Shown: positions 35,177-46,609 of the stretch, one piece after another
How positions within the stretch are numbered: position 1 is the first letter of the stretch
How the letters are laid out: each line of letters opens with the position of its first letter
Source of the DNA: Escherichia coli
Lineage (GTDB): Bacteria > Pseudomonadota > Gammaproteobacteria > Enterobacterales > Enterobacteriaceae
DNA length: 64,000 nt
Direction: 5' to 3' (one strand)
NCBI RefSeq assembly: GCF_003334335.1
Contig: NZ_QOWQ01000009.1
Notes under the pieces: generated by a model
Database searches by the model: none
Told to the model about the DNA's origin: nothing
Seen by the model: the letters and a program-made list of their open reading frames with translations, nothing else
Made by a program: the position numbers and the translations under genes

Positions 35177-35256
35177 AACGCGTCATTTTTCAGCCGACCT
35201 TTAACACGTTCCTTGCCTCCCCGGGATTCGGCTGACCCAGACAGGAGGCTGAATAA

Positions 35257-35670
<414 letters not shown>

Positions 35671-36714: not shown

Positions 36715-36738
36715 TTCGTTATTCAACGAGACGTAAAA

Positions 36739-36768
36739 ACGCCGACCATTGGTCGGCGTTTTGCTTTT
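36739..36768. terminator. bidirectional rho-independent terminator (rplI on plus strand; accessory operon on minus strand)
   Basis: Hairpin ACGCCGACC-ATTG-GGTCGGCGT flanked by AAAAA upstream and TTTTGCTTTT downstream. Confidence 0.8.
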
Positions 36769-36825
36769 GTAGCGAGCACTTGCAGATATCGATAAGGGCC
36801 ACAATAAGCAGCCCTACGAAGATAA

Positions 36826-37797
36826 TTACTTAGCTGCCTGAATATCAGCCAGCATTGGGGCAAGGGCTGGGTTGTCCTTAGCGAAGTTTGCGTACATTGG
36901 CTGTACTTTCTCGATAAACGGAGCTTTATCTACCTGGTAGACTTTCACGCCCATTTTATCCAGTTTTGCAAATTCTTGTTTCTCTTCCTCGCTCCACAAG
37001 TCTTTCATGTAGCTCATTGATTCTTTAGCTGCTTTTAATATAACTGCCTGATTTTCCTGGCTAAGTTTATCAAACGCAGCATTGCTCATCAGAACCACAT
37101 CGGGAACCATAGTGTGTTCGTCAAGGCTGAAGGATTTTGCCACTTCACCGTGACGCATGGTAGTCAGCGCCATCACGCTGTTTTCTGCCATATCGACCAC
37201 ACCCTGCTGTAAGGCTGTATACAACTCGCCGTAATCCAGTGGCGTCGGGTTACCGCCCATGACTTTGATCATTTCAACTGCGCCAGGGCTTGGCTGGACA
37301 CGGACTTTCATGCCTTTCAGATCGTCTGGTTTCAGTACTGGTTTATTGCCATAGAAACTGCGGGCGCCTCCATCATAAAAAGTCAGCCCGAAATAACCTT
37401 TGCTTTTCGTTGAGTCGAGGATTTTTCTCCCGATATCGCCCTGCATGACCTGATAATAATGATCACGATCGCGGAACAAATAAGGCAGGCTAAATAATTT
37501 ATAGGAATTTTCAAATGCTTCCATTTCTGCCGCATTGGTTTTTACCAGGGGAATAGCGCCAGAACGAATCAGCTCCATTGTTTCTCGTTGAGTACCCAAT
37601 GTTCCATTTGGATAAATACGAATAGTAATATCACCGTTAGAGTACTCTTTGCTCTTTTTCGCAAAGAACTCCATCGCTTTATGAACAGGATGAGACTTAT
37701 CCTGATTATGACTCAGTTTTAATGTCACTGCCCAGGACTGGCTTGCGGATAACATAAGAACAGCACCGATAATGCCAGCGGATACTTTTATTTTCAT
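36826..37797 (-). CDS. TRAP transporter periplasmic solute-binding protein (DctP family)
   Basis: 323 aa, signal peptide MKIKVSAGIIGAVLMLSASQSWA; DctP-like fold with Arg in YDGGARSFYG at the position typical for carboxylate binding; last gene of operon; AT-rich. Confidence 0.8.
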   Translation of the reverse strand: MKIKVSAGIIGAVLMLSASQSWAVTLKLSHNQDKSHPVHKAMEFFAKKSKEYSNGDITIRIYPNGTLGTQRETMELIRSGAIPLVKTNAAEMEAFENSYKLFSLPYLFRDRDHYYQVMQGDIGRKILDSTKSKGYFGLTFYDGGARSFYGNKPVLKPDDLKGMKVRVQPSPGAVEMIKVMGGNPTPLDYGELYTALQQGVVDMAENSVMALTTMRHGEVAKSFSLDEHTMVPDVVLMSNAAFDKLSQENQAVILKAAKESMSYMKDLWSEEEKQEFAKLDKMGVKVYQVDKAPFIEKVQPMYANFAKDNPALAPMLADIQAAK

Positions 37798-37849
37798 AGA
37801 TGTTCCTTTTCTAATAAATATGGCGGCAGGTGCCGCCAGTGAATGCGCA

Positions 37850-39151
37850 TCAGTAGCCCAGTGCTCTTGGCAATGCCATACTGATTTGCGGAATATAGGT
37901 CACCATTGCCAGCACCAATACCATCACGGCATAGAATGGCAGCATAGGTTTGATAATTTTATTAATCGGTAATTTAGATACACTACAACCGACAAATAAC
38001 ACACTGCCTACAGGCGGAGTACAAATACCGATACACATGTTCAGTACCATGACAATACCAAAGTGAATCGGGTCCATGCCCAGTTCGGTGACAACCGGTA
38101 AAAATATCGGCGTAAAAATCAGTACCGCCGGTGTCATATCCATAAAAGTGCCGATAATCAACAGGATAATATTGATAATAAGCAGGATTATTATTGGGTT
38201 GTCAGAAATAGTGTTAAGCAAATCGAGAATCAGGAAGGGAACGTCAGCGTTTGACATTGCCCATGACATACCCATCGAAGAACCAATTAATAACAAGACA
38301 ATTGCAGTGGTAATAACGGATTCCAGAAATATTTTAGGTAAATCTTTAACTGAGATTTCACGATAAAGAACCAGTGCAAGGAAAAGGGTATAAATTACTG
38401 CAATTGCGGAGGCCTCTGTCGGGGTAAAAATACCACTTAATACACCCCCCATAATTAAAATAATCAGGAAAATACTGGGGATAGCCATCCATATCGCAAC
38501 GCCAGCCTGGCGTAAAGTCGGGCGTTCTGGCTTTGGATAACCGCGACGTACCGCGATAATACCGGCTATTACCATCAGTGCCAGACCCAGCAAAATTCCC
38601 GGAACATAACCCGCCAGGAACAGTGCGGCAATAGAAGTACCACCACTGACCAGTGAATAGACGATTAACGTATTACTTGGTGGAATAAGCAAACCCGTCG
38701 GGGCAGAGGCAACGTTAACCGCAGTACTGAATGCCGGGTCGTAACCCTCTTTAACCTGTTGCGGATGCATGACGCCGCCCATCGCAGCCGCCGAAGCCAC
38801 GGCTGAACCAGAAATTGCCCCGAACAGCATATTGGCGAGAATATTACAGTGGGCAAGTGAGCCTGGCAGACGACCGCCGAGAATACGGGCAAAGTTGATT
38901 AATCGTCGCGCTATTCCTCCATGGTTCATAATGTTGCCAGACAAGATAAAAAATGGGATTGCCAACAACGTAAAACTATCTAACCCGGAGGCTAACTTTT
39001 GGGAAACCACACTCAATGCTGAGTTGAAATCGAGTTGTGTGGAAATTGATGCCAGTGTCGATAAACCAATGGCATAAACAATAGGTACACCTAATGCCAA
39101 CATAAAAAAGAAGGCACCAAATAACACAATAATCGGTAACCAGTAATCCAT
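37850..39151 (-). CDS. TRAP transporter large permease (DctM family)
   Basis: 433 aa polytopic membrane protein, typical DctM N-terminus MDYWLPIIVLFGAFFFMLALGVPIVYAIGLSTLA; GGAG SD before ATG; sampled lines about 30% G+C. Confidence 0.85.
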   Translation of the reverse strand: MDYWLPIIVLFGAFFFMLALGVPIVYAIGLSTLASISTQLDFNSALSVVSQKLASGLDSFTLLAIPFFILSGNIMNHGGIARRLINFARILGGRLPGSLAHCNILANMLFGAISGSAVASAAAMGGVMHPQQVKEGYDPAFSTAVNVASAPTGLLIPPSNTLIVYSLVSGGTSIAALFLAGYVPGILLGLALMVIAGIIAVRRGYPKPERPTLRQAGVAIWMAIPSIFLIILIMGGVLSGIFTPTEASAIAVIYTLFLALVLYREISVKDLPKIFLESVITTAIVLLLIGSSMGMSWAMSNADVPFLILDLLNTISDNPIIILLIINIILLIIGTFMDMTPAVLIFTPIFLPVVTELGMDPIHFGIVMVLNMCIGICTPPVGSVLFVGCSVSKLPINKIIKPMLPFYAVMVLVLAMVTYIPQISMALPRALGY

Positions 39152-39193
39152 AATTTCTCCATTCCTACTATGGTTGGTTGTTGTTTGTTATCT

Positions 39194-39694
39194 TTAGAGT
39201 GGTTGTTTAAGTTCGGTTAAAACCATATCTATGGTGTATATAATAATAAGTACACCACTAATCGGGATGCTCATATAGATATATCCCATTTGCCAGCCTA
39301 AAGCGGGCGAGGTCTGACCTGAATCGAATGTATCCATCGTTAATAGCCCACCACCATATACCATAATGATGGTTGCGAAGATAATAACGATAATCTGAAT
39401 ACACAAAAATAAATGACGTCGGGCTTTTCCTTTCAGCATCATAGGTAGCAGGTCAATCGCCAGATGCCGGTTTTGCCCTGCGGTGTATGCCCCACCAAAA
39501 AGTCCAAGACAAATAAAGAGCAAACGGCTGAGTTCATCTGTAAAAATACTGGGACTAGTAAATATAAATCGTGCAGCCACCTGCCACGTCACACATGCCA
39601 CGATGATCGCCAAAATGGTAATGTTCAATGCTGCAAGCAGAGCATTAATAGATCTAATTATATTTCGCATAGTGATTAACCTTTGCAATATCAT
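39194..39694 (-). CDS. TRAP transporter small permease (DctQ family)
   Basis: 166 aa, four hydrophobic segments, size and position typical of DctQ; start ATG overlaps stop of upstream flavoprotein gene (ATGA). Confidence 0.7.
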   Translation of the reverse strand: MILQRLITMRNIIRSINALLAALNITILAIIVACVTWQVAARFIFTSPSIFTDELSRLLFICLGLFGGAYTAGQNRHLAIDLLPMMLKGKARRHLFLCIQIIVIIFATIIMVYGGGLLTMDTFDSGQTSPALGWQMGYIYMSIPISGVLIIIYTIDMVLTELKQPL

Positions 39695-41772
39695 TCATCC
39701 TGTGGCTGGTAAATTGTCCCATTAAGAAAACCAGGCCAGTTTTTTTCAAACCAAATACCTCGGATAATAGGAAACTCACGAACAGGTGTTTCTCTGACGT
39801 GAAAGATACCGTTGCAATAATGAATAAGTAGTTTATCTTTTTTATCCTCAGTACGCTCTGAACGAAAGCGCCAGGCATCACAAAAACCATTTCGTGTTTG
39901 CGGAATAGAATTTCCATCCCTGTCGAGAATAATACGTGCTCCCCGACTACCACCACCTGCGTCAATATAATGCGTTAATTGCGTTAATACGGCGGCAGAA
40001 GTCAGTGCCATATGCCGCCACATAAACAGCTCGGCAACTTCACCCACATGTTTGATAGCCAATCCATGCCGTTGGACAAATTCGCTCAATAGCAGGGCAT
40101 CGCGAGTGGCGCGTCGGACTTTATCGGCATGGCAAATAAATCCCGCATGGTCAGACATTCGTGCCTGAATTTTTTCTCTCACAACCGACAACGGCATCCC
40201 GGTCCCGTTATCGTGCGCCTGAGTAATGATCTCTCTTATAGAAGCCAGTGTAGGAGCTACCAGCTGTGCTATATCTCCATCAATATTCCGCTTTTGCGTG
40301 CAACCAATAAAACGTGCCAGACGAACAGCAAAAACCTGCCCGGCATTCAATGCTGCACCACCAGGGCGAGTGACGCCGTGTGTGCCAGCAACTTCCCCCA
40401 CGGCGAAACAGCCGGGCAGGGAGGTTTGTCCCCAGATATCCACTTCAATGCCGCCATTCATATGCTGATTATTCATGGCAAACTGCAAAGGCTGTGTGGT
40501 GAGATCGTAACCGTGCATCTTATACAGCGAGATAGACAGCGGATTCATTCGTTGCAGCCGTTCGATGGGCGATGGTGCCAGAGCGTCGTTATTTTCCAGA
40601 TACGCGCGAACGTCGTCGTCCAGTCGATCTAATGAGAACGGCAGGTCACCCGGCACCGCTTCAGGATTGCGATTGAAATCCATAAATACCTGACGCCCTG
40701 ATTGCTGCTCTTGCGCTACTGCCATATCTAACAAGCTGGAGCCAAAATCCATCACCCGAGTGGCGTGGAACGGCCACTGATAGCCTTTACGGAAAATGTT
40801 TGAAGCCAGCTCCTGGGTGGTGCGATAGTAATCCGCGAGGAAGTTATACTCGTTACCCTCAGCATCCACGGAATAGATATACGGGATCACCTGTACATAG
40901 GTGCCGGATAAATTCCACGGAAACGTGCTACGCGGCGTGCCTATACCAAACTGGCTTTCGGTCAGATTGGTTAGCGTCAGGCCTTCCTCCAGCGCCAGCC
41001 CCAGCGAGCCAAAACATTTGTGTGGGTACACACTGTCGCGATAAAGCTCGCCAGGCCCTCCTGTTGCCAGTACCACATTGGGCGCAGTCACAATTGCCAG
41101 CCCCCAAGGGTTATGGGCGCGATGACCGGTCGCGAGGATTGCCCCCGCAACACGGTCTTCGCCGTTTTCGTCACGCTGATGCAGCAGTTTAATCACTGTT
41201 GCACTGGTCAACACTGGAATGGCGAGGCGCTGTACTTCTTCCAACAGCACTTTCACCATTAACCTTGAGGTACGCGGCCCACACGAGGTTGCACGCCCGG
41301 CTTCGTCATGGTCGGTTTGATAACGAAGAATCGCGCCATAGCGATCTTCCGGTAATTCCAGACCAAGATATTGCAACCCGCCAAGAGTGTGCAGAGAACC
41401 TACCGCTTCGACATAAGCGGTGTCGTGATCCATCGCCCCACCGCTCGCCAGTGCCTCTGCCAGTTTGGTGAAGTTGTCGCCGTTGCCCGCGGTAGCGGCG
41501 GTAAACAGTGTCTGTTTATCGGAACCAGAACATGCCGACGTCCCCATATATAACCCGGCGGTGGCGATCAGCACATTTTGCTGGCGGCGTTTAAGTTCCA
41601 CAGCTGCACGCAGCCCGGCTGCACCACTGCCGACTACCAGGGCATCTGTTTGCCAGAGTGGGTAATCAACACCGTCTACCGTGACAACCCATGCGGGCTC
41701 TGCCTGTGCAAAACCCTTTGGGAAAGTAACGTGCGTCAGCGCATCAAGGATGGTGTCATCAAGCTGACTCAT
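39691..41772 (-). CDS. FAD-dependent oxidoreductase, fumarate reductase/succinate dehydrogenase flavoprotein-like (693 aa)
   Basis: N-terminal dinucleotide-binding motif ALVVGSGAAGLRAAVEL; C-terminal FAD motif GCFAVGEVAGTHGVTRPGGAALNAGQVFAVRLARFI; no RSHT-type covalent-FAD His motif seen; ATGA overlaps on both sides. Confidence 0.75.
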   Translation of the reverse strand: MSQLDDTILDALTHVTFPKGFAQAEPAWVVTVDGVDYPLWQTDALVVGSGAAGLRAAVELKRRQQNVLIATAGLYMGTSACSGSDKQTLFTAATAGNGDNFTKLAEALASGGAMDHDTAYVEAVGSLHTLGGLQYLGLELPEDRYGAILRYQTDHDEAGRATSCGPRTSRLMVKVLLEEVQRLAIPVLTSATVIKLLHQRDENGEDRVAGAILATGHRAHNPWGLAIVTAPNVVLATGGPGELYRDSVYPHKCFGSLGLALEEGLTLTNLTESQFGIGTPRSTFPWNLSGTYVQVIPYIYSVDAEGNEYNFLADYYRTTQELASNIFRKGYQWPFHATRVMDFGSSLLDMAVAQEQQSGRQVFMDFNRNPEAVPGDLPFSLDRLDDDVRAYLENNDALAPSPIERLQRMNPLSISLYKMHGYDLTTQPLQFAMNNQHMNGGIEVDIWGQTSLPGCFAVGEVAGTHGVTRPGGAALNAGQVFAVRLARFIGCTQKRNIDGDIAQLVAPTLASIREIITQAHDNGTGMPLSVVREKIQARMSDHAGFICHADKVRRATRDALLLSEFVQRHGLAIKHVGEVAELFMWRHMALTSAAVLTQLTHYIDAGGGSRGARIILDRDGNSIPQTRNGFCDAWRFRSERTEDKKDKLLIHYCNGIFHVRETPVREFPIIRGIWFEKNWPGFLNGTIYQPQDE

Positions 41773-43310
41773 GCATCCTCCATCGGCGTAAACAGGCTAC
41801 TTTCCATCAGGCGTGGGTGCTTGATAATTGGACGGAAAGCCATATACGGCAGAATGTCGCGCTCAATCTCCACACCCGGCGCGATTTCAATTAATTCAAC
41901 GCCTTCTGCCGTTAACTGGAATACTGCGCGTTCAGTGATATACAACACTTCCTGACCACTTTGCTGTGCGTAGGCGGCGCTAAAAGTGATTTTTTCCACC
42001 TTGGTAACCAGTTTAGGGATTTGACCTGACTGGGCGATATGCAAGCCATCTGGTGTTATATCGATCTTGCTGCCTTTAGCGTCGAACGTGCCGCAGAACA
42101 CCACTTTACGGGCATTTTGCGCAATTTCGAGAAATCCGCCGGGGCCAATCAGATTGCCATTGAGATGGGAGACGTTGACGTTACCGTACTGATCCATCTC
42201 TCCCATGCCGAGGAAGGTGATATCGATCCCTCCGCCACTGTAGAACTCAAATTGATCGAGTGATGGAATAATGGCATCGGCGTTGCGGGCGCAGCCGAAA
42301 AACGCATCATCCAGCATCATGCCGTTATGTACGCCTTGCTCGACGCTCAGCCATAAACTTTGGTAAGGAACGCCTTCGCGCAGCGCTACTCCTGGAATGC
42401 CGCCGGGAATACCAAAGCCAAAGTTGGTTGAAGCGCCAGCTACCAGTTCGCGTGCTGCCCGACGGGCAATCAGGCGACGTACCGGATGACTAACCAGTTC
42501 AATAGCGTCGTTAGAACTCAGACGGCGATGTTGGCCGCTGATGGTCAGGTCGTAACCGCCAAGATAGGTTTGTGGTTGTTCGCGGTGTTCAACGATGCCA
42601 TCAACCAGAATGCCCGGTAATTTGACCCGGCGTGGTTCAATCGCGCCAGCTTCCAGCACATCGCGTACCTGTACGAACACTTTGCCGCCGCTGTTGTGTG
42701 CTGCCAGCGCCATGGAATAGCTATCCATATCAATCGCTTCTTCTTCAAGGCTGACGTTGCCTCGAGGATCGGCATAAGTGCCACGCAAAATCGCGTAATC
42801 CACTTTGAAAGGGCGATAACGAAGTTTGGTTTCACCGTCGATTTCAATCAGTTCTACCAGCTCGTCGGTAGTGCATTCATTCGACTTACCGCCGCCATTG
42901 CGTGGATCAACAAACGATCCCAGCCCAACGTGGGTAAAAAGCCCCGGACGTCCGGCGCCGATCTCCCGTAGCAGTGCCTGAATCACGCCACCAGGAAAGC
43001 AGTAGGCTTCAATCGTGTTATTTTTTACCAGCGCCTGCATTTTGGGCGACCAGGTAAAGTGCCCGGCAATAATGCGTTTGAGCATCTCTGCGTGCGCAAA
43101 ACGATTAGTGCCTTTGCAGTCGCGATCGCCAATACCCAGCGAGTGGATTAGCGTCAGGTCGCGAGGGTGTCCGGTTTGCAGGAAACGCGCTTCAATAGCA
43201 GCCAGAATATGGTCGGCTTCCACCATACCGCCGCCGTTACCGCTAATAGCAATAGTCGCACCGTCCTGAATTTGCGCCGCCAGTGCCTCGGCGGTTGTTA
43301 TCTTACGCAT
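41769..43310 (-). CDS. family-I CoA-transferase, fused alpha/beta subunits (YdiF / propionate-CoA-transferase-like)
   Basis: 513 aa; GNGGG-containing N-terminus (ATIAISGNGGGMVEADHILAAI) and overall layout of fused 3-oxoacid/acetate CoA-transferases; family call from memory of fold. Confidence 0.7.
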   Translation of the reverse strand: MRKITTAEALAAQIQDGATIAISGNGGGMVEADHILAAIEARFLQTGHPRDLTLIHSLGIGDRDCKGTNRFAHAEMLKRIIAGHFTWSPKMQALVKNNTIEAYCFPGGVIQALLREIGAGRPGLFTHVGLGSFVDPRNGGGKSNECTTDELVELIEIDGETKLRYRPFKVDYAILRGTYADPRGNVSLEEEAIDMDSYSMALAAHNSGGKVFVQVRDVLEAGAIEPRRVKLPGILVDGIVEHREQPQTYLGGYDLTISGQHRRLSSNDAIELVSHPVRRLIARRAARELVAGASTNFGFGIPGGIPGVALREGVPYQSLWLSVEQGVHNGMMLDDAFFGCARNADAIIPSLDQFEFYSGGGIDITFLGMGEMDQYGNVNVSHLNGNLIGPGGFLEIAQNARKVVFCGTFDAKGSKIDITPDGLHIAQSGQIPKLVTKVEKITFSAAYAQQSGQEVLYITERAVFQLTAEGVELIEIAPGVEIERDILPYMAFRPIIKHPRLMESSLFTPMEDA

Positions 43311-43319
43311 ACAATTTCC

Positions 43320-44102
43320 TTATTGATTATGGAAGCTCACGCTACTTTTTTCGGCAAAGGCGCGCGTCGCCTGCTGGCAATCCTGAGTGGCAGACATTAA
43401 TCCGGCCAGTAGCTGGTGCGGGTAATCGGCATGTTTATTTTCCAGTGCCAGAATCAGTTGCTTAATATGCGCCAGTGCCACCGGGCCGCATTTTTCCAGC
43501 TGCGCTAACTGGTTCGCCATCCAGCTTTCCACCTGTTCTTTTTCTACCACTTCATCAATTAAATTCGCCGCCTGGGCTTCCTGCGCCGTCAGGCGTTTAC
43601 CCAGCATCAGCATCTGGCGACCGACCACCGGACCAACCTGATTAAGCACACGTTCAATGCCCATCCAGCCAGGCACCATGCCGAGCATCACTTCCGGGTT
43701 AGAGAATTTCGCGCCGGGGCGGGCAATACGAATATCGCAGCACAAGGCCAGTTCAATACCACCGCCGATGGTATGACCGTTGAGATTCGCAACGGTTAAT
43801 TGGGGTAAGTTTCGCAGGCGATTAAAAACGTCATTACCGCGTTTAATCCATTTTCTGCCCATATCTAATGGCGAATAGGCCGACCACGATTTAATATCGC
43901 CGCCCGCACAAAAGAATTTATCGCCGGTTGCCGTTAATTCGACTAATCGTAATGTGGTGTCGTTTTCAATTTCATTTAAATAATGGTCGAGAGATTCGAT
44001 CATCTCTTCGTTAATAGCATGACATTTATCTTCACGGTTCAATGTCAGGCGGCAGGAAGCCGCCGCTCTGCTGAACAGAACGGGTTGGTCACTCATGATC
44101 AT
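43320..44102 (-). CDS. enoyl-CoA hydratase/isomerase (crotonase fold)
   Basis: 260 aa; oxyanion-hole motif FCAGGDIK, catalytic Glu motifs GGGIELALCCDIRIA and FSNPEVMLGMVPGWMG. Confidence 0.8.
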   Translation of the reverse strand: MIMSDQPVLFSRAAASCRLTLNREDKCHAINEEMIESLDHYLNEIENDTTLRLVELTATGDKFFCAGGDIKSWSAYSPLDMGRKWIKRGNDVFNRLRNLPQLTVANLNGHTIGGGIELALCCDIRIARPGAKFSNPEVMLGMVPGWMGIERVLNQVGPVVGRQMLMLGKRLTAQEAQAANLIDEVVEKEQVESWMANQLAQLEKCGPVALAHIKQLILALENKHADYPHQLLAGLMSATQDCQQATRAFAEKSSVSFHNQ

Positions 44103-44105
44103 TCC

Positions 44106-44948
44106 TTAACAATAATGCGCGATGCGATCGACGCTAATATCCAGCGTGCTGTTAATATCTTTTTGCCACCAGTACGGCGAGAATATTTCCAGTTCAATAG
44201 CGCCATTAAATCCGGCGTTTTCAACCAGCCGACGAATTGACGGAATATTGATGACGCCATCTCCCGGCATACCACGGTCATTGACCAGATCAGTGGTCGG
44301 CACTAACCAGTCGGAAACATGAAACGCGAGGATGCGTTTTCCGGCACGCAGGATCTGACTGGCGAGATCCGGATCCCACCAGACGTGATAAACATCCACC
44401 GCCACGCCGAGGCCAAACTCACCATCGGGATCGAGTTCATCACACCAGTCCAGCGCCTGGCGTAACGTGCACAGGCAAGAGCGATCGGCAGCTGTCATCG
44501 GGTGCAGTGGCTCCAGCGCAATTGGCACGCCGACATCTTTCGAATGTGGCAGCAACTGGCGAATCCCTTGTTTCACTTGTTCTCGCGCTTCATATAGATC
44601 TTTAGTGCCCGTTGGCAGACCGCCAACCACCTGCATATAACAGGCGGCGTTAAGCACCGCTGCGTCGTCCAGCGCCCGGCGGTTATCATCAATCGCCAGT
44701 TTGCGTTCCGCCAGTGTCGGCGCGGTGTAGTAAGTGCTACGGCACAAACCGGAAACGCTCATGTTACTGGCGGCAAGCTGGTGGGCGATTTGCTGGAGAT
44801 CTTCACCTTGCAACTCCCTGCGCCAGGGAGCAATCGCGCCAATACCACGCGCGGCGCAGGCATCAATAATGGCGGGTAGCGGCGTTTTATAGCCCAGTGT
44901 TGCGGTATTGATACTGAATAAATCCGGGCGTTGTAACAGATCTCTCAT
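44106..44948 (-). CDS. sugar-phosphate isomerase/epimerase, xylose-isomerase-like TIM barrel
   Basis: 280 aa; conserved metal-ligand pattern of the family (IALEPLHP, DVYHVWWD, AIELEIF); the same fold as UlaE in this window but clearly a different sequence. Confidence 0.7.
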   Translation of the reverse strand: MRDLLQRPDLFSINTATLGYKTPLPAIIDACAARGIGAIAPWRRELQGEDLQQIAHQLAASNMSVSGLCRSTYYTAPTLAERKLAIDDNRRALDDAAVLNAACYMQVVGGLPTGTKDLYEAREQVKQGIRQLLPHSKDVGVPIALEPLHPMTAADRSCLCTLRQALDWCDELDPDGEFGLGVAVDVYHVWWDPDLASQILRAGKRILAFHVSDWLVPTTDLVNDRGMPGDGVINIPSIRRLVENAGFNGAIELEIFSPYWWQKDINSTLDISVDRIAHYC

Positions 44949-44957
44949 GATTCAGCC

Positions 44958-45749
44958 TCAGAAGCGCGGCATACTTAAGCCGCCGTCGATGGCGACCGCC
45001 TGACCACAGGTGTAAATCAGTTTACCTTCCGCCATCGCGCGGACAGTGGAAGCAATATCAGCCGGATAACCCCAACGTCCCCACGGCACCAGACCTTTGG
45101 CAATCAGTTCGTCGTAATAAGCCGTTGCCGGAATAGTCATATCAGTTTTGATGAGACCTGGGCGCACTTCATAAACGCCAATTTGTTCATTACAAAGGCG
45201 AGCTGCAAATAGACGAGCAGCGGCAGAAACGGCGGTTTTGGCAATGGTGTATTCGCCGCGATTCATCGCCAGCATGATGGCGTTGATGGAACTGACGAAA
45301 ATAATCGAGCGGTGCGGCAGTTCCGCTTCCGGTTTCGGCTGTGCCAGTAAACGCTTACTGAATGCCTGAGCAAGGAAGAACGGCGCGCGGGTGTTAATGG
45401 CAATGTTTTGATCGAAGCTGTCTGGTTCGAGGTCGAGGAGGTCACCGCGTTTTTTCACTGAAATGCCTGCGTTGTTGAGCAGGCAGTCCAGACGTCCCCA
45501 CAGGTTTTGCGCCGCGTCGAGCATCTCTTCATGCAAGGAGAGATCGCCGACATCGGCAGGGAAGCAAATCACTTCCACGCCTTCAGCTATACATTCTTGT
45601 TGTGTGATATGCAGTTTTTCTACGCTGTCGGCATCGGGAAGATCGTTAATCAGCAGGTTAAATCCGCCACGAGCAAGCTCCAGCGCACAGCCCTTTCCAA
45701 TACCACGAGCGGCTCCGGTAATCACGGCAACAGGACGAGTGGATTTCAT
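44958..45749 (-). CDS. short-chain dehydrogenase/reductase (SDR), first gene of accessory operon
   Basis: TGAARGIGKG cofactor motif, NNAG, catalytic YTIAK; ORF track begins at a TTG (45791); first ATG at 45749 gives the usual spacing before the Gly motif. Confidence 0.85.
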   Translation of the reverse strand: MKSTRPVAVITGAARGIGKGCALELARGGFNLLINDLPDADSVEKLHITQQECIAEGVEVICFPADVGDLSLHEEMLDAAQNLWGRLDCLLNNAGISVKKRGDLLDLEPDSFDQNIAINTRAPFFLAQAFSKRLLAQPKPEAELPHRSIIFVSSINAIMLAMNRGEYTIAKTAVSAAARLFAARLCNEQIGVYEVRPGLIKTDMTIPATAYYDELIAKGLVPWGRWGYPADIASTVRAMAEGKLIYTCGQAVAIDGGLSMPRF

Positions 45750-45795
45750 ACAATAGCTCTCTTTTTTTGAATATTGTTTTCTAAGTGACAATTAG

Positions 45796-45839
45796 CTTGC
45801 GACGTGCCGCAAGAAAGATCAACCATCTGGTTGGTTGAT
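45796..45839. promoter_or_regulatory. two adjacent palindromes in the divergent control region between the accessory operon and its TetR gene (candidate operators)
   Basis: CTTGCG-ACGTGC-CGCAAG (45796-45813) and ATCAACCA-TCTGGT-TGGTTGAT (45818-45839, with nested AACCA-TC-TGGTT); read directly. Confidence 0.5.
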
Positions 45840-45961
45840 ATGCGATAGTGATCACAGGACATTTGATAACTTGATGAAAGTACAAGTTTTTATCCTTTTT
45901 ACTGGAGCTTCTAATTAATCGGGTTAAGATAGTTATCTTGAAGAGGTCGTGGGGAAGCGTT

Positions 45962-46609
45962 ATGTATCTTGATACCAGCAACGTACAGAGCCTGAAGGAA
46001 AAGCTGCTGTTATGCGCGGTTAATGAATTTGCCGAATATGGTTATGAAGGGGCCAGGGTCGATAATATTGTTAAGGCTGCGGGGTGTAGTAAACAGACGG
46101 TTTATCATCACTTTGGTAATAAAGAAAATTTATTTATTGAAGTACTGGAATATACCTGGAACGATATTCGACAAAAAGAAAAGGCCCTTGATTTCTCAGA
46201 TCTTCCGCCACAAAAAGCCATTGAGAAAATTATTGATTTTACATGGGATTATTATATTGCTAATCCCTGGTTTTTAAAAATTGTGCATAGTGAAAATCAA
46301 AGTAAAGGTGTGCATTATGCAAAATCACAGCGTCTCTTAGAAATTAACCATGCGCACTTGCAGTTAATGGAATCCTTATTGGATGAAGGGAAGAAACACA
46401 ATATTTTTAAGCCAGATATCGACCCATTGCAGGTGAATATTAATATTGCTGCGCTTGGCGGATATTATTTGATCAACCAGCATACGCTTGGCCTGGTTTA
46501 TCATATCAGTATGGTTTCCCCCCAGGCACTGGAAGCCAGACGTAAGGTCATCAAAGAGACAATCCTTAGCTGGCTTTTGGTTGACCCTTCATCTACCGCG
46601 CACGAATAA
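45962..46609 (+). CDS. TetR-family transcriptional regulator
   Basis: N-terminal [47 protein letters not shown]; ORF track start 45938 is TTG, first ATG at 45962; 3' end overlaps ytfB 3' end by 17 nt. Confidence 0.8.

Follow-up and report, generated by a model that had tools for sequence, protein, structure and literature searches.

The 64,000-nucleotide stretch of Escherichia coli DNA analysed here (contig NZ_QOWQ01000009.1; hereafter the window) carries, between rplI and ytfB, nine genes that are strongly supported as a single unit: an eight-gene operon on the minus strand, coding in order for a short-chain dehydrogenase/reductase (SDR), a TIM-barrel enzyme, a crotonase, a coenzyme A (CoA)-transferase, a flavoprotein and the DctQ, DctM and DctP subunits of a tripartite ATP-independent periplasmic (TRAP) transporter, together with a divergent gene for a TetR-family regulator. 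This is a real and widespread pathway, a CoA-dependent operon for carboxylate catabolism with two enzyme families without assigned function at its core. We tentatively understand it, giving the idea somewhat less than an even chance, as an accessory catabolic operon, repressed by the TetR protein, which processes a sugar-acid-like hydroxy-carboxylate via CoA esters, both the substrate and the order of the steps being what we infer. An earlier, sequence-only reading of the same DNA had singled out a quartet of open reading frames (ORFs; 41769-45749), made of the SDR, TIM-barrel, crotonase and CoA-transferase genes. The quartet stands, in one operon where the gaps from the SDR to the DctP gene are of 9, 3, 9, -4, -4 (20 with the RefSeq start of DctQ), 42 and 52 nucleotides, but the unit to which it belongs also comprises the flavoprotein, the transporter and the regulator.

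All four ORFs lie on the minus strand at the positions given, and E. coli genomes of identical sequence have RefSeq gene calls that agree with them; the end given to the block by the earlier reading, 45749, is the correct start of the SDR gene. The segment 36800-46650 is 100% identical to many complete E. coli genomes. At a coverage of at least 80%, the five enzyme genes are found in 3114 of 5426 complete E. coli genomes, some match to them occurring in 3153. Being kept as a block in thousands of genomes, the ORFs cannot be chance ones. In strain 190 the genes of the minus strand have been named by RefSeq, starting from the transporter, TRAP binding protein, TRAP large permease, TRAP small permease, FAD-dependent oxidoreductase, acyl CoA:acetate/3-ketoacid CoA transferase, enoyl-CoA hydratase/isomerase, sugar phosphate isomerase/epimerase and 3-ketoacyl-ACP reductase, followed by the divergent TetR/AcrR regulator. 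Taken one by one the folds are standard, and generic names of this kind are what the operon routinely receives in annotation. The start of the flavoprotein gene overlaps the stop of the CoA-transferase gene by 4 nucleotides. At this very place (41769-41772) some public E. coli calls (P0122, P0154, P0206) fuse the two proteins into one of about 970-1080 residues, carrying PF01144 with or without PF00890; these are probably frameshifts or miscalls at the overlap, a natural fusion being possible.

The enzymes that give the operon its CoA character have kept their catalytic features. Residues 6-508 of the transferase align with the structure of E. coli YdiF (2AHU), E324 standing opposite E333 of YdiF, which we take to be the catalytic residue, and GPGGF (389-393) opposite GTGGF, so that the GxGGF oxyanion loop is in place. 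Models of both the A and the B subunits of succinyl-CoA:3-ketoacid CoA-transferase match this protein, as expected of two CoA_trans domains in one chain; with the FadX-like model of NCBIfam it scores 383 bits, under the cut-off of the model. In the crotonase, the two glutamates of the hydratases 5ZAI and 5Z7R have their counterparts in E117 (GGGIELA) and E137 (NPEVMLG), equivalent to Glu144 and Glu164 of rat enoyl-CoA hydratase, and the oxyanion loop reads CAGGD (65-69). The best matches are short-chain hydratases, 5ZAI, a 3-hydroxypropionyl-CoA dehydratase, at 4e-40 and 5Z7R at 4e-37. As for the SDR, TGAARGIG (11-18), NNAG (92-95), S153/S154 and the pair Y167-K171 make it a classical member of its family, scoring 417 bits with NCBIfam PRK12745 (cut-off 250). 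Its nearest structures, 4DA9 and 4ONE, are entered as a generic SDR or a 3-oxoacyl-ACP reductase, and genuine FabG models are far under their cut-offs (122 versus 298 for TIGR01830). The gene is located in a catabolic operon, and the FabG-type name given by RefSeq is not evidence of function. We can therefore uphold what the sequence-only reading had said of these proteins, namely a family-I CoA-transferase, a crotonase with both catalytic glutamate motifs and an SDR with an intact YxxxK motif, alignment having uncovered no inactivating substitution in the active sites of the crotonase or the SDR. The activate, hydrate and oxidize trio which it had built from them has no source of enoyl-CoA unless the flavoprotein, or a substrate that is already unsaturated, supplies one.

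The TIM barrel belongs, as had been recognized at first, to the xylose-isomerase-like proteins, both by its PF01261 match and by its AlphaFold2 model (pLDDT 86.7), which retrieves structures across that family with Foldseek. Its closest relatives of known structure are SMc04130 (3QC0/3JU2; 50% identity) and the Paenibacillus sp. R4 protein 7VPF (41%), with TM scores of 0.87-0.89; the titles of these three entries give no function, 7VPF being a 'novel putative sugar isomerase'. Seven residues, E146, D185, H188, H210, D213, E252 and E254, are invariant in the protein and 14 homologues at 55-88% identity to it. The spacing of E146, D185, H210 (and H188) and E252 comes, by comparison of sequences, near that of the metal and catalytic tetrad of ketose 3-epimerases, which we assume to lie at positions 150/183/209/244. 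Structural matches to characterized members (IolI, ketose 3-epimerases, a QuiC1-type fusion, YcjR, UlaE) share 13-20% identity with it. Assignment to IolO or to hydroxypyruvate isomerase was rejected (28 bits for a cut-off of 300 and 26 for 353, respectively), and the protein falls in none of the families of known function considered within PF01261, i.e. IolI, IolE, IolO, hydroxypyruvate isomerase, ketose 3-epimerase and 3-dehydroshikimate dehydratase. We propose that it is an epimerase, an isomerase or an eliminase acting beside a keto group.

The sequence-only reading had remarked that such a barrel is not normally seen in CoA pathways. About 20 loci chosen by hand make up the neighbourhood evidence that bears on this point. 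In a metagenome-assembled genome (MAG) of Rhodocyclaceae (L002) the order is TetR, MaoC, SDR, TIM barrel, enoyl-CoA hydratase (ECH), CoA-transferase, flavoprotein, DctQ and DctM, with DctP further on; in Sodalis ligni (L007) it is TetR, SDR, TIM barrel, ECH, CoA-transferase, flavoprotein, a major facilitator superfamily (MFS) transporter and a flavodoxin. With tblastn, every enzyme is orthologous at 40-79% identity and the order is conserved in both loci. Another version is found in pSymA-type replicons of Sinorhizobium meliloti, in Paracoccus and in Sagittula, where an aldo-keto reductase (AKR), the CoA-transferase, ECH, in some cases glycerate kinase, a second AKR, an acyl-CoA dehydrogenase (ACAD), the SDR, DUF993 and the TIM barrel follow one another, sometimes with EtfB and EtfA; a metagenome contig (L003) has TetR, CoA-transferase, ACAD, SDR, DUF993 and TIM barrel, and Paraburkholderia has MaoC, TetR, CoA-transferase, a ThiF-like protein, DUF993, TIM barrel and MFS. 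The co-occurrence of the TIM-barrel gene with CoA-transferase genes, suggested at the outset as a check, is thus seen in all these organisms, and since the linkage with CoA enzymes is met again in each of three classes, the alpha-, beta- and gammaproteobacteria, it is not a chance adjacency. Relatives of the barrel at about 50% identity, accompanied by a homologous TetR, are also found beside Gfo/Idh/MocA, DUF993 and enolase-superfamily genes and carboxylate or ABC transporters, this time without CoA enzymes; in the nearest SMc04130-type locus sampled (L009, 50% identity) the neighbours are TetR and Gfo/Idh/MocA-type genes. Hence the presence of the barrel in the pathway is well founded, but its action on a CoA ester is not thereby established. 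That a TIM-barrel gene from some sugar pathway just happens to lie beside unrelated CoA genes, as these CoA-free relatives might have suggested, is very improbable, its gaps with its neighbours being of 3-9 nucleotides, the same neighbours recurring in three classes of proteobacteria and the five enzyme genes being at least 80% covered in 3114 of the 3153 E. coli genomes where they are matched at all. In the CoA-type cluster of a Sagittula plasmid (L024, 8892-10163), a gene annotated 'degradative HMG-CoA reductase' abuts the TIM-barrel gene, with TRAP and BKACE genes nearby; this neighbour may hint at what the substrate is, such as a diol acid oxidized to a thioester.

The second family at the core of the operon is that of the 693-residue flavoprotein. 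The Pfam domain FAD_binding_2 (PF00890; E 8e-28) covers only residues 43-475, and the AlphaFold2 model (pLDDT 90) superposes over its full length on SDHA and FrdA (Foldseek), with TM scores of 0.62-0.66 and 15-19% identity. The protein resembles SdhA, FrdA and NadB in its four domains, in a conserved FAD dinucleotide motif and in the pair H437/R469, which aligns with H351 and R386 of NadB. It differs from them in this low identity, in a glycine that takes the place of the substrate histidine and in the absence of an iron-sulphur partner gene. His244 of NadB, in the QFHPT motif, faces G276, the motif being QFGIG and the glycine invariant in 18 family members, which have invariant motifs of their own (GSDKQT, KGYxWP and SRG). 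The flavoprotein has no covalent-FAD histidine motif, and neither iron-sulphur nor membrane-anchor partner genes were found in the operon or in its orthologous loci examined; NCBIfam models of Sdh, Frd and NadB all score far under their cut-offs (for example 127 for 718). With the substrate histidine and the partner genes missing and the family-level scores low, the functions of succinate dehydrogenase, fumarate reductase and aspartate oxidase were rejected. This protein represents a new conserved family, a large one in which a threshold of E<1e-30 gathers 422 clusters (50% identity), and we propose that it is a C-C dehydrogenase or an ene-reductase.

The neighbours of this family point in two directions. 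No sampled locus that combines the TIM barrel with CoA enzymes has both the flavoprotein (present in E. coli, L002 and L007) and an ACAD (present in L003, L008, L010/L012, L023 and L024), and L004 has neither of them; this mutual exclusion suggests non-orthologous displacement, the one functionally replacing the other. Away from CoA enzymes, a 55%-identical flavoprotein of Rhizobium (L019) is encoded between Gfo/Idh/MocA and a sugar kinase with an aldolase, the whole order being aldehyde dehydrogenase, sugar ABC transporter, two GMC oxidoreductases, Gfo/Idh/MocA, flavoprotein, sugar kinase and aldolase. Relatives at 35-46% identity directly adjoin a PRK12745-type SDR, often with an Old Yellow Enzyme (OYE) flavoenzyme and another TIM barrel. 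This SDR-flavoprotein adjacency, with no CoA enzyme called, is seen in L015, L016, L017 (a 4-kb contig ending at the flavoprotein gene) and L020, the last of these in Subdoligranulum variabile, where the pair adjoins an IlvD/Edd-family dehydratase and a LacI regulator. Three of these loci, all non-proteobacterial, combine the flavoprotein homologue with an OYE-type FMN oxidoreductase, as one fused protein in the metagenome contig L016 (8001-11255) and as a nearby gene in L015 (6364-9598), another metagenome contig, and in L020 (6756-11932); the PRK12745-type SDR is adjacent in all three, and the arrangement recalls NADH:2-enoate reductases. The SDR-flavoprotein pair is therefore a conserved sugar or sugar-acid module present in several phyla, and it need not act on CoA esters.

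What the substrate might be is best approached from the importers. The P, Q and M subunits are all present, with the carboxylate arginine R166 in DctP, as is required of a TRAP transporter; DctP also has an apparent N-terminal signal peptide (…SQSWA/VT, read by eye, the slash marking the cleavage site). The best structure matches of DctP (E 1e-60 to 1e-71) are 4OVR, 4X8R, 4N8Y, 4N15, 4N91 and 4MHF. Of these, 4X8R binds glucuronate and 4N8Y galacturonate (PMC11668362), Apre_1383 (4N91) and Bpro_3107 (4MHF) bind D-glucuronate or D-galacturonate, and 4N15 was the template for the glucuronate binder STM3169 of Salmonella (PMC7660916). DctP aligns well along its entire length with these hexuronate binders (4N15 being Bamb_6123), in whose clade it falls, and shares with them the carboxylate-clamp arginine R166 as well as R146 and N206. 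It differs from them near the ligand, with HNQDKS in place of D(T/V)H(P/G)D..., RE in place of KD and D233 in place of glutamate; moreover, the genes of the hexuronate binders are found with uxu/uxa rather than with genes for CoA enzymes. Given these differences around the ligand, we judge glucuronate itself to be an unlikely substrate. Furthermore, E. coli already has ExuT and UxaC/UxuAB for this compound. The MFS importer which stands in for the TRAP system in other strains scores 315 bits with TIGR00893, 'D-galactonate transporter', a model of the ACS family, to which DgoT, ExuT and GudP belong, and it is 50% identical to the orthologous MFS protein of Sodalis. Two unrelated and interchangeable importers, both from families that handle sugar acids, point to a sugar-acid-like anion as the substrate, in keeping with the hydroxylated, sugar-acid-like carboxylate that had been guessed from the TIM barrel. 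That it might also be cyclic, as had been added, is pure speculation.

Comparison of E. coli with the Rhodocyclaceae MAG gives 66-85% identity for the TRAP proteins (85% for DctM, from the syntenic operon) and 40-62% for the enzymes; as the identity of the transporter exceeds that of the enzymes across both lineages, the same type of importer accompanies the same set of enzymes. The G+C content of the TRAP module is about 0.44 (0.39-0.50 for its genes), that of the enzyme genes 0.50-0.57. Taken together, this low G+C content and this higher identity suggest an independent horizontal exchange of the transporter cassette.

The pathway that we tentatively favour would then run as follows. The TRAP system, or the MFS protein in other strains, would import an anion which would relieve repression by TetR at its palindrome. 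The YdiF-like transferase would make the acyl-CoA without ATP, the donor being acetyl-CoA or else the thioester of the pathway's own product, in which case the CoA cycle would be closed, as it is in carnitine metabolism. The SdhA-like flavoprotein would introduce an alpha,beta double bond, a role that ACAD and electron-transfer flavoprotein (ETF) would fill in the alphaproteobacterial versions, the two-glutamate crotonase would add water to it, and the SDR would convert the resulting beta-hydroxyl into a beta-keto group. The TIM-barrel metalloenzyme would subsequently epimerize, isomerize or eliminate at the hydroxylated carbon beside the keto group, a chemistry typical of its superfamily, and the products would be released by a housekeeping thiolase or by transfer of CoA to the next molecule of substrate.

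Several points weigh against this scheme. Ordinary aldonic and uronic acids need no activation by CoA, and they lack the saturated alpha and beta carbons that a desaturase requires, a difficulty which every model leaves unexplained. We know of no precedent for an enzyme of the SdhA fold acting on an acyl-CoA. Neither the island nor any orthologous cluster examined has a thiolase gene, so that the set is not that of canonical fatty-acid beta-oxidation, and no version has a lyase or a hydrolase for the final cleavage of the C-C or thioester bond either: the end of the pathway is therefore unexplained, whatever the model. Finally, flavoprotein relatives at 35-55% identity occur in the CoA-free sugar or sugar-acid clusters L019, L020, L015 and L016, and TIM-barrel relatives at about 50% identity stand with Gfo/Idh/MocA and DUF993 and no CoA enzyme, so that TIM barrel, SDR and flavoprotein may have a free acid as their substrate.

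This last point leads to the strongest rival, a pathway in two modules, which we deem unlikely while granting it real weight. The SDR, the TIM barrel and the flavoprotein would remodel the free sugar acid, oxidizing a hydroxyl to a ketone, epimerizing, isomerizing or dehydrating beside it, and desaturating or reducing a C=C bond; the short hydroxy- or enoyl-acid that results would be handed on to the CoA-transferase and the crotonase. It would account for the adjacency of SDR and flavoprotein (of about 690 residues) in the four CoA-free loci, often with a TIM barrel and OYE, for the Rhizobium flavoprotein set amid Gfo/Idh/MocA, sugar kinase and aldolase, for the frequent association of the TIM family with Gfo/Idh/MocA, DUF993 and enolase-superfamily genes, and for the fact that crotonase and CoA-transferase are nearest to short-chain enzymes, 3-hydroxypropionyl-CoA dehydratase and YdiF. 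The complementarity of ACAD and flavoprotein in the CoA clusters is nevertheless better suited to a CoA-ester substrate, the 4-nucleotide overlap couples translation of the flavoprotein to the CoA-transferase gene, and L015 and L016 have TIM barrels of another subfamily, without significant BLASTP similarity.

A weaker rival, and quite an improbable one, would be reductive, an electron sink for life in the anaerobic gut similar to the cai system for carnitine: a beta-hydroxy acid would be activated, the crotonase would dehydrate it, the flavoprotein would reduce the enoyl-CoA and CoA would be handed to the next substrate molecule, the SDR and the TIM barrel preparing the right stereoisomer. 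The flavoprotein has the fold of the fumarate reductases, some of its homologues have an OYE-type FMN domain fused to them (L016) or an OYE gene next to them (L015, L020), a flavodoxin gene lies 3' of the Sodalis operon, and the hosts are facultative anaerobes of the gut. ACAD and ETF, for their part, can run reductively, as CaiA and FixAB do. Yet the E. coli operon encodes no electron-donor module, and the alphaproteobacterial versions, with a glycerate kinase and in aerobic soil bacteria, speak for carbon assimilation.

A bolder reading, which we regard as doubtful, would make the 693-residue protein the founder of a new class of acyl-CoA (or polyhydroxy-acid) C-C dehydrogenases or ene-reductases built on the SdhA/FrdA fold, the SMc04130-type barrel acting on a CoA-tethered keto-polyol. 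With these two enzymes, Enterobacteriaceae would have their first route in which a sugar acid or a hydroaromatic acid is processed in dependence on CoA. Pushed to its extreme, the substrate could be a carbocyclic look-alike of a uronate, such as quinate or shikimate, handled in the manner of the bai pathway. The conversion of quinate and shikimate to cyclohexanecarboxylate or benzoate in the gut has long been known, and this extreme version could explain it.

Three states of the region 36768-46206 are met in E. coli: the TRAP form of the window, a form in which yjfZ and the MFS transporter stand in the place of the TRAP genes, as in CE10 (L021) and other strains, and the remnant of K-12. The full TRAP-containing form is covered in 1448 E. 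coli genomes. In K-12 (L011) homology with the window stops at 36767 and resumes at 46207, with only yjfZ and the pseudogene ytfA between; as it resumes inside the TetR gene, ytfA is the 3' stump of the repressor of the operon, and K-12 appears to have arisen from the MFS form by deletion. Relatives were also found in Salmonella, Klebsiella and Citrobacter. In the searches of E. coli genomes, all but 1-4 of several thousand matches are chromosomal. Some 'plasmid' records that carry the island (H16, H56-H59) are of 0.37-4.8 Mb and non-mobilizable, and they are probably mislabelled chromosomal sequence.

The coordinates of the unit and of its control elements are collected in Table 1.

Table 1. 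Genes of the island and predicted control elements, in order of position in the window
Feature	Position	Strand	Support and remarks
GC-rich hairpin AAAACGCCGACCATTGGTCGGCGTTTT, 12 pairs; probable bidirectional terminator	36736..36762	strandless	A and T runs on either side; between convergent rplI and dctP
DctP, TRAP periplasmic solute-binding protein	36826..37797	-	NCBIfam TRAP_S1/dctP, 246 bits
DctM, TRAP large membrane subunit	37850..39151	-	TIGR00786, 458 bits
DctQ, TRAP small membrane subunit	39194..39670	-	RefSeq call, YiaM-like match; alternative start 39694 would overlap the flavoprotein stop
SdhA/FrdA/NadB-like stand-alone cytoplasmic flavoprotein, 693 aa	39691..41772	-	FAD_binding_2; four-domain fold
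Fused family-I CoA-transferase, YdiF-like, 513 aa	41769..43310	-	YdiF structure 2AHU, E 1e-113
Crotonase-fold enoyl-CoA hydratase/dehydratase	43320..44096 (RefSeq start, 258 aa) or to ATG 44102 (260 aa)	-	both glutamates
Xylose-isomerase-like TIM-barrel metalloenzyme, SMc04130 family, 280 aa	44106..44948	-	PF01261, E 2e-37
Classical SDR, PRK12745 type, 263 aa	44958..45749	-	RefSeq '3-ketoacyl-ACP reductase'; proposed hydroxyl-to-keto dehydrogenase
Probable TetR operator, palindrome ATCAACCAtctggtTGGTTGAT	45818..45839	strandless	perfect inverted repeat in the 212-bp divergent promoter region
TetR/AcrR-family repressor gene	45962..46609	+	RefSeq call, weak NCBIfam TetR-type matches; divergent from the operon

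TetR homologues at 31-61% identity adjoin the TIM-barrel gene in 8 compared loci (given as L002, L003 and L005-L009), and TetR_N/TetR_C_29 domains are recorded for homologous regulators at related loci. The palindrome between the regulator gene and the operon, with the core AACCATCTGGTTGGTT (45821-45836), is the sole inverted repeat of the intergenic region and is unique in the window, where 0 chance matches are expected; its 22 base pairs are kept in CE10 with 1 mismatch. Kindred palindromes adjoin the TetR homologues of Sodalis (ACCAACTAGTTGGT), of the Rhodocyclaceae MAG (AACCAACCGGTTAGTT) and of Erwinia (AACTAACTAGTTGGTT), the common core being AACyAACnnGTTrGTT. It is probably the operator of TetR, a proposal of binding that stems from sequence comparison. 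At the other end, the hairpin between rplI and dctP is probably a bidirectional terminator and the left edge of the island, homology with K-12 stopping close by, at 36767. Within the operon and its regulatory region no Rfam family is matched, and promoter-like and terminator-like matches inside the operon are no more frequent than in shuffled sequence, and therefore uninformative on regulation there. Another GC-rich hairpin, TGGCGGCACCTGCCGCCA (37821-37838, minus strand), with a T-rich tract after it, lies in the 52 nucleotides that separate dctM from dctP; it could serve as an attenuator, or as an element of mRNA processing or stability by which the amount of binding protein relative to permease is set. 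The only Rfam match is the RpsF leader (RF02893, 110 bits, 35193-35277, plus strand), upstream of rpsF and 5' of the rpsF-priB-rpsR-rplI operon that borders the island.

In the open-access full texts searched we found no functional study of this operon, for which its absence from K-12 may be one reason. Solving it would give a function to a TIM-barrel family which has three crystal structures and no known activity, as well as to an SdhA-like family of 422 clusters; it would reveal a nutrient that separates lineages of E. coli in the gut or the urinary tract, probably a sugar acid derived from host, diet or plants, and it would explain the pseudogene ytfA of K-12. Chemically, a 'sugar'-type TIM barrel inside a thioester pathway would be an unusual combination. 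This would not change any paradigm, unless the proposal of a new enzyme class on the SdhA fold proves true, but the system is both widespread and tractable.

Comparison with known systems helps to place the operon. One of the nearest in concept is the 2-deoxyribonate route of Klebsiella michiganensis (Price et al. 2019), which has sugar-acid CoA esters, deoxyribonyl-CoA and glyceryl-CoA, as intermediates (PMC6365646). It shares with the pathway favoured here the handling of a sugar acid as a CoA thioester, a beta-hydroxyacyl-CoA dehydrogenase, a CoA-transferase and import by MFS (PMC6365646). The genes of the Klebsiella cluster, however, include those for a CoA synthetase, thiolase, lactonase and glycerate kinase, and none for a crotonase, a TIM barrel or an SdhA-like flavoprotein; with so different a set of genes, identity of the two systems was rejected. 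YdiF of E. coli (2AHU/2AHV/2AHW) is likewise a fused alpha/beta family-I enzyme, with the same catalytic glutamate and loop, but the transferase of the operon is a paralogue of it, at another locus and with other neighbours, and is under the NCBIfam FadX cut-off.

The general design is reminiscent of caiTABCDE, where a transporter, an ATP-free CoA-transferase, a crotonase acting as a dehydratase and a flavoprotein acting on enoyl-CoA are combined, possibly in a closed CoA cycle as well. CaiB is a family-III transferase and CaiA an ACAD; the cai system is devoid of SDR and TIM barrel, and acts on a quaternary amine instead of a sugar acid. The ali/bad genes of Rhodopseudomonas palustris for cyclohexanecarboxylate and the bai genes for bile acids also proceed, on ring-bearing carboxylates, by activation with CoA, desaturation by a flavoenzyme, hydration or dehydration and oxidation by an SDR. 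They differ from the present operon in using ACAD or OYE-type flavoenzymes and a second crotonase or a SnoaL-type dehydratase, with no TIM barrel, so that it is by the logic of their chemistry that we liken them to it.

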